From: Callorhinchus milii
Lineage: Eukaryota
Direction: 5' to 3'
NCBI RefSeq assembly: GCF_018977255.1
Contig: NW_024704768.1
Span: forward strand, 3,968,001-4,032,000
Length of the DNA stretch: 64,000 nucleotides
Positions 5,885 to 11,390 of the stretch are shown here, in pieces. The notes below the pieces were generated by a model. The model did no database searches. It had not been told where the DNA came from and was given only the letters and a program-made list of their open reading frames with translations. Position 1 is the first letter of the stretch, and every line of letters starts with the position of its first letter. The position numbers were made by a program, and so were the translations under genes.

Positions 5885-8800
5885 ATGGAGTCAAAAGGCA
5901 ACAAGGTCACGGCTGACGTAAGTGCTGTTTGGCTCTGCGATAACGCTCACGATTATAATTAATAATAATCATCATCCTTGGTGACTGAAGACCCTCCTCT
6001 TCGACCGTGCCTCCAGTCAGCTCCCCTCTCCCCCAGGCTCCACCGCCGTCAAGGGCTCCGAGACGCTGTCCCGCAATGAGGGCTGCTGTTGCTATATATA
6101 GATGCACGTTGTTGTTGTTGTTGTTGTTGATGATGTCGCGGTTTTCTGGAAGAACGCGTTAGATATGGACCAACTTCAGCTGAATCCCTCTCAACAGTAA
6201 TAATAATAATCCTTGAGTCTTATCCAGCGCCTCATCACGTGGTTCAAAGCGCTTCGCAGGATACACTGTAAAGTGCAGTGACTGTGTGTGTGTATACAGA
6301 CAGTTGCGCACAGCACCGTCCCACGAATAGCCGTGGATGGCGTGATTTTTTTGGGGAGGAATTATTACCCCCGGAAAAGCGATCCGCCGATCGACTAACA
6401 AGCGGGTTCCTACTTAAAGCCGGATAAACAGAGATGTGTGCGGAGTAAGGAAACTTGTCCAGTGTTTCTCTCTGGTGGGTGGGTGGGAAAGCCACAGAAA
6501 TCTTTGTCCTGGGCTAGGAAAACAGGCTCGATGGACTGAATGGCCTCCACCTCTTCCTGCATTTCCCAGATATTCTGCTCATCCCATTATTTTCGTTTTT
6601 TTTTCTTTTTAGCAATTGTTGAAAACGATCAAAGTGCAGGGGCCAAAGTACGGGAATTGGGAACTAAAGATCCGGGCGACATTCGATTTGATCTGTCGCA
6701 ATAAACCCTACCTGGAGGGAGAGGTCGAAGATGTCTTCAGCACCGATCCCGGGTTCTACTTCCTAACGTTCAACAAGGTGAAAGGTACGGAACCAATTAA
6801 TGGGAGAACATAAGGATTTGCTGGACCGAGAAGACCAAGGGCCATCCAGTTCGTCTTCCCCCATCCATCCTGGCCTTCGCTTGACATGTCGTGTCCCCAA
6901 ACTATCTCCTGTATCTATCCCCAGGTGTTAATAACAATAATAATCCTTGTATTTGACCCGGACCCTTATCATGTCTTCAAGACGTCTCAAAGCGCTTCCC
7001 GGGATACACTATCAAATCCGTTTTGTGGGCGAAACCCGGCAGCCCAATTGCGCACAACAGCGTCCCCACAAACAGTGGTGGATTGAAGGGACCGACTTAT
7101 TTATTTGTTGTTGTTATTATTATTGTTGAAGGAATTTATTTCCCCCGGAAACGCGATCCGCCAGTCGACTCAGGGCTCGAGATATTATTTACCGGCGGAA
7201 ACCGATCGAATTTGTNNNNNNNNNNNNNNNNNNNNNNNNNNNNNNNNNNNNNNNNNNNNNNNNNNNNNNNNNNNNNNNNNNNNNNNNNNNNNNNNNNNNN
7301 NNNNNNNNNNNNNNNNNNNNNNNNNNNNNNNNNNNNNNNNNNNNNNNNNNNNNNNNNNNNNNNNATACATTTCCTCGCTCGCTCACTGAAGGAGTGTTTC
7401 CGCTCCCAATTTGTTCCGGATCTGCCTGCGCAAGTTCAAGTTGTTGGGGTCGGTGCGTGGAATTCTCGATCTAGTTTGACGACGCTTCGTTACGCCCTCG
7501 GTTACCGCCACCCCGCGTGAGTGGCGCTTTGTCATCGCAAGCTGCTGTGGCGTTGGTACGTTTCTGCCGTCGTACGGATCAATAGAAAAAGAAGACAGTC
7601 GGAACTGTTAGAATCGTTGAATTTGCCTCTGGTGAGGTTTTTTGACCCGTTTCTTAATCTATTTCTTCCTCTCGATCCAGTCGCCAAGGAGTTTCTAAGC
7701 ATGAAAACTGTCAATGTGCCCGGCTACGGGCTTGTGGAGGTGCAAGTCCCTACTGTTGATGACATGTTGATCTCCAGTATTGAAGACCTGGTAAAGCTCA
7801 GAAATCTTCTCCTTGACGTCCTAAGGTCCCAGTGGAGGGCACTTTGGTTGCTCTCCTCTCAACCCATCCCCACGCCAACAAACCATCGTTAAACCTGCCC
7901 GTAATATAGGCTCCGTGAGCCCTTCACCCACGGACCCCACCCCCATCCCTCGCACATCCTCGCCCGGCTCCACTGTCTCCCCGTCTCTCCACCCAGAGGA
8001 TTCTCCTGTAAATCCCTCCACCGCCTTGCCCTCTTGCCCCCACCCTGACCTGCTTAAGCCCTCCCCAACCCGCCCGCTCCCTCCGCTCAGCACCCTCTGG
8101 AACCCATCCCAGATTCCCCTTGCCTGGCCACCTTCCTTCAAGGTCCGTCTCAAGACACTCTTTGACCAACCGGGCTTTCGATCATCCCTCTCCCGCTCTC
8201 CTCTCTCACCCTCCTCCCCTCCCTCCCTCGTGTGGAGGGCGCTGTTGTTGTTGTTGACTAAGAGCAGATTGGCCTCTCACTCTCCCATGTTCTTTCCCAT
8301 GTCCCACCAGGAGCCAGACGTTTCTGCAGATAACTACACTTTGGCCCGTTGTGTGGAGATCATGTGGCTCCAACACCCGCTTTCCCTGATGGAGCCCAAG
8401 AACCTGTGCAAGAACCTCCAACGTGTCTTTAGCAAAAATTTCCCCGAAATTAAGCTCAAAGTGGACAGTGTCCTTGAGTTGCCATCAGGAAACAGCCTGG
8501 CTCACCTGACCAGTAAACTAGGTAACCTACGATAATAATAATAATAATTAATAATAATCCTTGCATTCGACACAGCGCCTTGTCGCTTCTTCGAGACGTC
8601 TCAAAGCGCTTCACGGGATGCACTGGAAAGTGGAGTGAGCTGTACAGTTTGTGGGCGAAAGGCGGCAGCCAATTGCGCTCAGCGGCGTCTCTGCAAACAG
8701 TCGTGGATCGAAGTGACCAAATTATCATTTGGAAACCCCCCCCACTCCCCATTTTTTGAAGGGATTATTACCTTCGGAAAAGCGACCCCTGCCAATCGAC

Positions 8801-11390
8801 TAACAGCCGGGTTCCTATTTACCTCTGGTAAACAGAGGCGCGAGTGTGTGTGGAGTGAAGTCCCCAAACTTGGCTAAGATCTCGCCCCAAACCATCCAGG
8901 TCCTCGGGCTCTGACCACTGAGCTACGGGGACTCCACCTTTCAGTGCTTCCCTCGCAGACCACTTTATCTCCGTTGACTCTCTCTCTGTTCGCTCCTCAG
9001 CCGTGGATCATATCCTGGAGAAGGCCGCGAATTCGGTTTATTCCATTCAAGTCAAGTTCCGAATGGGGGAACCGAAGCTTCTCGACGAATCGAACGTCAC
9101 CTTTCTCTCCTCGCTGGATGAGGTGAGTTGCTCTCGAGCGTGAGATTTGCGGCACAAACGACATTGCACGTCGAGAGTAAATGAAAACAGAAGTGGCTGG
9201 GAACACGCAGCGGGTCAGGCAGCGTCTATGCAGAGAGGAAAACACTGGGGAAATTTCCTTACTCCACACGCACACGCGCGCCTCTGTTTACCCGGCAGTA
9301 AGTAGGAACCCGGTTGTTAGACGATCGGCCGATCGTTTTTCCAGGGTGATAACCCCTTAAAAAAATAATAAATTGGTCACTCAATCCACGGCTGTTTGTG
9401 CGGACGTCGCTGGGCGCAATTGGCCTGCCGCGTTTCGCCCACAAAATATACAGTCACCGCACTTTACAGGATGTTCTGCGAAGCGCTTTGAGACGTCTCG
9501 ACAACGTGATCGGGCTCTGTATCAAACGCAAGGATTATTATTATTAATTATTATCCGTGTACTTCTTCGCTTTCCGTTTCTTCTCAGATTTGGGACGAGA
9601 CGTCCGTGATCATTGACCTTGACAAGATGCCAGATACTCTGAGACCTCAGGCTAAAGATCTGATCATGGCCAAGCACGTCCAATTCGACGAGAAGCTGAA
9701 TAAAATCTCTGCCACTGGAGCATTCGAAGAGATACAAGAACTCCGCTGGGAGCTTCAGGGCTTATATTCCGGGAACGTCAGCCATCTAGAGCCAGTGAGT
9801 GTGCCGGCGGATACAAAGGACAACAGCGTGTTTGAAAGAGAGAGCTTCAACGAGTTGGACATTTCATCCTCTTCCTTCCGCCAAGAAAAGGGGATCAAAG
9901 TGATCCAGAAGGAACTCCCAGTGGATCAAAAGGACCTCAGGTTGGTTCTCCCACCTGGCATTGAGGGGAGGCCAGAGGAACTGTCAAAGGAGGAGGAGCT
10001 TGTGGTTGAAGCAAAGAAAGTTGGGATTGTCGAGGAGATTTCCGCGGTTGCTCTCAGGCCAAAGGAACCGACGAGGCAGAAGGTGGTTGTGGTTGAAGCA
10101 GAGAAGGTTCAGAGGTTACCTGCAGTGCCTCTGACACAAAAGAAACCGTCAAAGGAGGAGGTCCCTCAAGTTTCTCCGCTGCCACCAGCGAGCTGGGTTA
10201 AAGAAACAGCTCCAATGGTGATCAAGGGAATGCCATCGGAAACCCCTGTAGCAAAGGCGGCGACGGCTGTCGGAGACAAGACGATCAAAGATCAAGAGAA
10301 GGCGAGACCCACGGAAGACAAGACGGAAAAGGTATTCATTCCTTCTTTATCCTCATCGCCAACAAAGGCCAAAGAACCGCAGGAGCCGGCCGAGAGCACG
10401 GCCCCTACCGACGTCTTCCTCTTCGACCCCATCATCACCTCCTCGGGCTTTGACTTCACAAAGAAGATAGCGAAGAGGCAACTATTGCTCAGCAGCAGCA
10501 GAGGCGGACAGGGGGGCATCCCACTTACAATGCTGGAATATGACTACATCAACGAAGCGTACTCGGAGGAGATACAGTCCATCAGCGACAGGTTCAAAGT
10601 GGGCCTGACCCCGGAAATCATCCTGAATGTCCAGCCCACGCAAGATAATAAGGATCCCACGGCGGTGGAAGAGGCTCAGGAGTTGTTGATCAGCCTGGTG
10701 GAAGAGGCAATGCCGAACCTAGCGGAGAGCACCCTCTCCGTCTCGTTTGAGGAAACCCCCATCGTGCAGAAAGCTCTACCGGAGATACAGGCCAAGCACA
10801 AGAGGCTCGTGGCCAAGAAGCTCAAGGAGGGCTATTCTCTGGTCGGCCCCGTGGAAGAGATCAAGGACGCTCAAGATGAACTCATCATGGCCTTGAAGAA
10901 GGCGGAAGAAAAGCCCTTGTTAGAGATGGAGGGAACGTGCGATTTGCTGGAGAATGGCTTCGACATTTACCACAATTACTGGCAGATTCTCTTACTCAAA
11001 CACGAGGTGGATTTGACCAACATCTCGATCCGTTACGACGTTGGCATTAACGTGCAGGACAGCTCCAACAACGAAATGAAGAAGGTCTCCATCAAGCAGT
11101 CGACAGGCACCTACAATATGTTGTGGCAGGCCCACGAGGCCTTCATCGACCTCTACCAGAGCGTGGCCACCAATGTGGCCAGCATGTCGTTGGAGAACAT
11201 GAAGGACCTGGAGTACATGAAGATGATGGAGGATGAGCTGACCCACAAGTACAAAGGCCTGCTTTTCCTGGAGAAACCCGACGAGTTTACCCTGGTAGGA
11301 CCTTACAGCGACCTGGTCAAAGCAGTGAACGACGTCAACAATTTACTCAACAGGAAGATATTCAAGGACATACCCAACGTGGACAAGTAG
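5885..11390 (+). CDS. Uncharacterised ~812-aa protein with two RRM-like domains, a P/K/E/V-rich linker and KH-like segments (RBM43/DTX3L/PARP14 N-terminal-like)
   Basis: Proposed coding exons 5885-5905 (MESKGNK), 6613-6784 (QLLKTIKVQG...GEVEDVFSTDPGFYFLTFNKVK), 7681-7790 (VAKEFLSMK...), 8311-8521, 9001-9122 and 9588-11390. All have AG/GT boundaries and compatible phases (0,1,0,1,0); total 2439 nt. The last exon is the 594-aa ORF with coding-like codon usage; ATTAAA follows at 11585-11590. Family resemblance is by eye only, and a gap (7216-7364) lies in intron 2. Confidence 0.8.
7216..7364. other. Assembly gap
   Basis: Run of N. Confidence 1.
7880..8255 (+). mobile_element. L2-clade LINE 3' fragment
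   Basis: Degenerate ORF2 C-terminus (...TLWNPS...FKVRLKTLFD) ending in a (ttg)n tail. Confidence 0.65.

Follow-up and report, generated by a model that had tools for sequence, protein, structure and literature searches.

A six-exon gene of the chimaera Callorhinchus milii, located at 5885..11390 on the plus strand of a 64,000-nucleotide stretch of contig NW_024704768.1 (hereafter the window), encodes a protein that very probably belongs to the DTX3L lineage. The gene is real. Its product retains the array of KH-like (KHL) domains that in human DTX3L contacts PARP9 and PARP14. Judged by sequence comparison, it is not a member of the Deltex ligases, yet it descends from them. We propose that the protein acts as a scaffold without ligase activity, whose KHL4–5 would contact PARP9 and PARP14, a reading to which we assign a probability of roughly 0.5.

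The coding exons span 5885-5917, 6613-6784, 7681-7790, 8311-8521, 9001-9122 and 9588-11390. The five introns are all GT-AG, with phases 0, 1, 0, 1 and 0, and a single frame of 816 residues runs across the six exons when exon 1 ends at a consensus donor at 5918. The alternative donor at 5906 is a poorer match and gives the 812-residue frame noted in an earlier, sequence-only reading of this DNA; the six phase-compatible exons and intact frame of that reading hold, and all motifs that it quoted are present. The choice between the two donors is not settled by the reads. The gene corresponds to LOC103171747, and its last exon matches XP_007882727. The public models of LOC103171747 contain 719 and 620 residues. 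Both lack exons 1–3, and hence the first RRM, and the longer one begins within intron 3. The full N terminus of the six-exon model corrects these public models. Three residues distinguish two database versions of the protein, and a fragment of it is labelled 'DTX3L KH-like domain-containing' in UniRef. An acceptor-like AG before the ATG suggests a 5′ untranslated region (UTR) exon further upstream, unseen here. The features of the gene, in window coordinates, are as follows.

5885..5917, plus strand: coding exon 1 (residues 1–11), with the acceptor-like AG directly before the ATG.
6613..6784, plus strand: exon 2, start of RRM-like module 1; on the spliced contig; 13.6 bits against the DTX3L RRM profile, 0/500 shuffles.
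7681..7790, plus strand: exon 3, completing RRM-like module 1; its 110 nt equal the gap in the spliced contig.
8311..8521, plus strand: exon 4, start of a probable second RRM-like module; on the spliced contig; weak profile score; Atlas language-model features of RBM43/PARP14 RRM.
9001..9122, plus strand: exon 5, end of module 2; length fits the spliced contig.
9600..9776, plus strand: KHL1-like domain (residues 221–279), counterpart of the DTX3L D2 oligomerisation domain; weak profile match and tblastn.
9807..10499, plus strand: linker of ~230 residues, K/E/V/P/S-rich by composition and predicted to be disordered (pLDDT <50).
10515..11366, plus strand: KHL2–KHL5 array (residues 526–809); PF21718; 174.8 bits; pLDDT mostly >90; KH fold with Z 9.4.
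11388..11390, plus strand: stop codon, 7 residues past KHL5; no other letter in the contigs of 4/4 runs.
11391..11590, plus strand: likely 3′ UTR, with ATTAAA at 11585; run X1 contig 9801-11549.
5409..5417, plus strand: site resembling an IRF element, 476 nt upstream of the ATG, a weak hint; 12 such sites occur in 62 kb, about a 1 in 10 chance of one within 500 nt.

The C-terminal 285 residues align over their full length, and collinearly, with KHL2–5 of DTX3L, the region that binds PARP9 and PARP14. The Pfam family KH_DTX3L (PF21718), whose cut-off is 27.4, matches the gene with 44.1 bits. Built from 144 homologue segments with this gene excluded, a profile gives 174.8 bits over positions 4–284, and the score of the KH array greatly exceeds what chance would give. 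In a model based on a 91-row alignment, KHL2–5 is the best-folded part, with a predicted local distance difference test (pLDDT) score mostly above 90. It can be superimposed on KH1 of PCBP1 with a Z score of 9.4 and a root mean square deviation of 1.9 over 67 residues, and the top 20 structural matches all contain KH domains. Foldseek found no match to the KHL2–5 model at an E of 0.001 or better, its best rows being KH pairs and KH-like secretin domains, and sequence searches of the PDB with the protein returned nothing real. In the same model the N-terminal half has a pLDDT mostly below 50 and RRM1 is not included, leaving the RRM fold without structural support. The predicted fold thus agrees with the earlier claim for the KH part, but does not extend to the RRM part. 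A single-sequence fold (pLDDT 32.9) was discarded.

A KHL1-like stretch lies at the expected position upstream of the array. Its match is weak: a profile made from 33 homologue segments gives it 6.6 bits (E 4e-4 for a single sequence), and tblastn with a sturgeon model (P0004, MGH0145131.1) finds it at an E of 0.002. Exons 2–3 and 4–5 had been read as two duplicated RRM modules. When 15 DTX3L RRMs were combined into a profile, RRM1 scores 13.6 bits, a value reached by none of 500 shuffles, and RRM2 scores a weak 4.3 bits, reached by 12 of 500. Pfam RRM models do not match the single exons. Compared pairwise, the two modules score 23, at chance level (shuffle mean 24.5; 658/1000 shuffles as high). 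Since the modules are not alike, the matching intron phase is all that speaks for duplication.

The ligase half is missing. Pfam identifies no RING in the 816-residue protein, which contains 4 Cys in total, and no Deltex C-terminal (DTC) domain. The macro, WWE and ART domains of the macro-PARPs (PARP9/14/10) are likewise not found by Pfam. These scans and the profiles agree with the earlier description, in which an RRM and KH-like protein from the group of DTX3L, PARP14 and RBM43 has no RING, macro or PARP domain. Within 62 kb of the window, no remnant of RING or DTC was detected, either when 2562 six-frame pieces were scanned with a RING-DTC profile or by tblastn with ten homologues. The stop codon is crossed by contigs of all four sequencing runs (3 studies), with no alternative letter listed, which rules out an assembly error at this position. 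Among the true phmmer matches described below, 20/23 carry RING and 19/23 carry DTC. Loss of the ligase is the simplest history, because 20 of these 23 relatives have a RING. In a larger set, 143 of 147 homologues contain a RING, at a median of 41 residues after KHL5, a set mostly collected with a RING-DTC query.

Comparison by phmmer with 1.84 billion representatives yielded 24 non-self matches, of which 23 are DTX3L-type and one is spurious. The 23 align through the C-terminal region and were typed by Pfam, source name or nearest neighbour. 'DTX3L-like' proteins of paddlefish, sturgeon, coelacanth, gar, bowfin, reedfish, axolotl and teleosts rank at the top, and caecilian and pigeon DTX3L rank lower. 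By both score and path length, the nearest relatives are the dtx3lb-type 'DTX3L-like' proteins of fish, coelacanth and salamander, not tetrapod DTX3L. A transposon open reading frame is ruled out, the phmmer relatives being DTX3L-type. The gene had also been called lineage-restricted, which fits the truncation but not the gene family. No shark or ray relative turned up with phmmer or the other homologue searches, which were weak for that purpose. Word-based homologue searches were crowded out (1 and 2 proteins) and are uninformative on sharks and rays.

A tree was calculated from 42 rows picked from 148, with no outgroup. Lungfish and tetrapod DTX3L form one clade (100/99). The Callorhinchus gene is not part of this clade; its long branch (1.54) emerges from an open basal fork that also gives rise to the 'DTX3L-like' proteins of coelacanth, salamander and ray-finned fish. 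Because the tree lacks an outgroup, it is compatible with an old paralogue pair or with a duplication at a later time; its topology suggests two old DTX3L paralogues, one of which was lost from the sampled amniotes. Salamanders and coelacanth (P0009, P0080, P0086, P0006) possess the fish-type DTX3L-like protein, and lungfish, caecilians, frogs and amniotes (including P0079, P0017 and P0111) possess the canonical DTX3L type. A two-paralogue tree contrasts with a preprint on DTX3L evolution, which in its accessible part treats DTX3L as one gene that changed locus (10.64898/2026.04.23.720386). Teleost dtx3lb.2/dtx3lb.3 (P0055-P0063) score far above the self-hit of a single RING-DTC query, suggesting several RING-DTC units per protein.

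The sequence-only reading had suggested an ohnologue of RBM43 on the 12q13 paralogon. Two observations point that way: the location beside MYL6 and a SMARCC gene, and the language-model (Atlas) features, which are nearest to RBM43 clusters (0.90). The features come from the N-terminal part, the Atlas recognition score fell under its bar, and the lead is common to RRM/KH modules of the group. At the sequence level, RBM43 proteins account for none of the 24 phmmer non-self matches. The families RBM43_C and KH_I_RBM43 gave no match in the scanned copy of Pfam, which may predate both. The C-terminal array instead fits DTX3L KHL2–5 end to end, making a true RBM43 ohnologue most improbable.

A related possibility is that the protein binds single-stranded nucleic acid through its RRM-like modules in the manner of RBM43, independently of PARPs. 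It could draw on the one supported and one weak RRM, on the Atlas features and on the KH fold matches to RNA-binding proteins. However, the KH-like domains lack the GXXG loop, the sole G..G motifs being in the linker at residues 340, 522 and 523, and a common fold shows no function. In DTX3L, nucleic acid is bound by the DTC, which is absent here, and the GXXG-less KHL domains may not bind it, a role left open in the accessible part of PMC11460948. The earlier claim of nucleic-acid binding is thus doubtful, and we regard this possibility as unlikely.

The gene looks functional. In a 664-nt contig of run X1, letters 31-197 correspond to exon 2 and letters 309-518 to exon 4. The intervening gap equals the length of exon 3, and the remainder has the length expected for exon 5 followed by 22 nt of exon 6. 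Splicing of exons 2–6 is therefore seen in one sample, with the junctions inferred from piece lengths; the RNA status of runs X1–X3 is a guess, and it is the intron-free contig that indicates splicing. Another X1 contig spans 9801-11549 and ends shortly before the ATTAAA at 11585. Run X1 also carries an in-frame 3-nt deletion at 6738 in exon 2. Of the coding single-nucleotide variants (SNVs) called from the contigs, eight of ten are synonymous and two non-synonymous, against a neutral expectation of 68% non-synonymous (P 0.003).

These data bear on the possibility that the gene is a ligase remnant in decay, without current function. The truncation, the long branch and the failure to find a shark or ray orthologue would suit such a remnant. 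The 816 open codons, the spliced transcript and the predominance of synonymous SNVs would not, and the DNA behind the stop codon bears no RING-DTC trace of the kind that a recent break would leave. Decay is accordingly very improbable.

The ligase-free scaffold is favoured because the PARP-binding array is kept while the ligase chemistry is lost. The gene would descend, by an old truncation, from a dtx3lb-type ligase gene of jawed vertebrates. The protein ends just after the fifth KH-like domain and would thereby have kept the array and shed the RING-DTC chemistry. According to the accessible part of PMC11080071, human DTX3L that lacks RING-CT retains binding to PARP9 and PARP14, which maps to KHL4–5; KHL2–5 was used in PARP14 ADP-ribosylation assays, DTX3L regulates PARP14 levels, and KHL1 forms dimers. 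By analogy, the chimaera protein would bind PARP9 and PARP14 through KHL4–5, and would stabilise and tune them without ubiquitinating proteins, ADP-ribose or nucleic acids. The gene would also be interferon-induced; from zebrafish and human, dtx3l, parp9 and parp14 are known as ancestral interferon-stimulated genes (10.1101/693333, as far as accessible).

Several points weigh against the scaffold. All binding data come from the human paralogue (PMC11080071, accessible part). The nearest relative is only 30% identical, and with so long a branch (1.54) the PARP interface may have been lost. The tree has no outgroup, and the basal fork from which the gene emerges is open. No chondrichthyan name appears among the best 120 of 1042 RING-DTC matches, a weak negative, and the searches, which stopped short of the whole C. 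milii genome, turned up neither PARP9 nor PARP14 nor an intact DTX3L from the chimaera. The promoter motifs that might point to interferon induction are near chance. In addition, the SNV count derives from contigs, which drop rare variants, and the database versions differ at three residues, as noted.

The same architecture could serve a decoy or dominant-negative protein that deprives an intact DTX3L ligase of PARP9/PARP14, or diverts viral antagonists from it. RING-less copies recur, in zebrafish dtx3lb.1 and Culter ABG768_003239, and the latter locus tag adjoins the RING-bearing 003240 and 003242. Positive selection on DTX3L has been attributed to viruses (10.64898/2026.04.23.720386, accessible part). 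However, the searches above turned up no intact DTX3L partner in Callorhinchus milii. The dimer interface of KHL1 (D2) is reported to be conserved only or mainly in amniotes (PMC10955461, accessible part), which weakens the case for poisoning through hetero-oligomers. Decoy and scaffold are not separable by sequence alone, and we consider a decoy possible but rather doubtful.

The gene lies upstream of a myosin light chain gene, as had been noted: the downstream exon best matches MYL6B/MYL6. This MYL6B/MYL6-like gene occupies 13690-13922 and 17845-17988, and its exon one codes for a long extension that is rich in Pro, Ala and Lys and contains short tandem repeats. A SMARCC-type gene, recognised by SANT and SWIRM-associated matches, lies on the minus strand at 33000-50000 of the window. 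It is probably SMARCC2 by synteny, the human order being ESYT1-MYL6B-MYL6-SMARCC2. No ESYT exon was found in the 62 kb of the window examined. The top-scoring phmmer match, the sturgeon model P0004 (MGH0145131.1), joins an extended synaptotagmin (SMP and C2 domains) to a DTX3L-like KH region. This unverified model is probably a merge of neighbouring genes, and provides one indirect hint of a conserved ESYT-DTX3L-like-MYL6 synteny.

High-copy repeats resembling short interspersed elements (SINEs), with TAA/TAT tails, occur at 4300-4630, 6200-6530, 6850-7200, 8540-8860, 9250-9560 and 11660-11820. They occupy the introns and flanks of the gene and dominate the read depth and the read-joint listing. 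A low-depth X1 contig at 4967-5195, upstream of the ATG, may represent a 5′ UTR exon or DNA. A gamma-activated-site (GAS)-like sequence at 4304 is near chance, as is the IRF-like site at 5409.

Our literature search found no paper on DTX3L in Callorhinchus or on Deltex/DTX3L evolution in cartilaginous fish, nothing relevant on DTX3L synteny with ESYT1/MYL6, and no functional paper on dtx3lb. The main text of 10.64898/2026.04.23.720386, as accessible, does not contain 'truncat', 'shark' or 'Callorhinchus'. We tentatively suggest that the ligase half was removed repeatedly from DTX3L-type genes (in the chimaera, in cyprinids and perhaps in RBM43), giving catalysis-free regulators of interferon-linked ADP-ribosylation, and that in chimaeras the product is an overlooked second paralogue at the ESYT1-MYL6 locus. 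If this is true, chimaeras separate the scaffold role of DTX3L from its ligase role naturally. Engineered truncations are used to ask whether DTX3L supports PARP9/PARP14 as a scaffold or as a ligase. A truncation that arose naturally, appears constrained and retains the PARP-binding array would offer a reagent ready for such tests.

Four known systems can be compared with the Callorhinchus protein. RBM43 shares the RRM/KH-like composition, the lack of a catalytic domain and similar language-model features, but has ~350 residues rather than 816 and no sequence match. Human and tetrapod DTX3L (BBAP; domain list in PMC11251020, accessible part) share the RRM, the five GXXG-less KH-like domains and a PF21718 match above cut-off. 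In contrast, the Callorhinchus protein lacks the ligase half, matches neither PF21717 nor PF23222, and is encoded beside MYL6 rather than PARP9. The 'DTX3L-like' ligases of fish, coelacanth and salamander (for example XP_041097837.1 of Polyodon and XP_005991517.1 of Latimeria) share the RRM-like N terminus, KHL1 and a collinear KHL2–5, at 24-30% identity. The Callorhinchus protein differs from them in the absence of RING and DTC, a 230-residue linker between KHL1 and KHL2, and probably two RRM modules. Zebrafish dtx3lb.1 (XP_073772275.1, P0018) and Culter ABG768_003239 (P0011), both known from database models only, also present a KHL array without RING or DTC, together with repeated N-terminal RRM-like modules. 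They nest among RING-bearing cypriniform copies, indicating a loss separate from that in Callorhinchus and, if the models are right, at least two losses of the ligase half.

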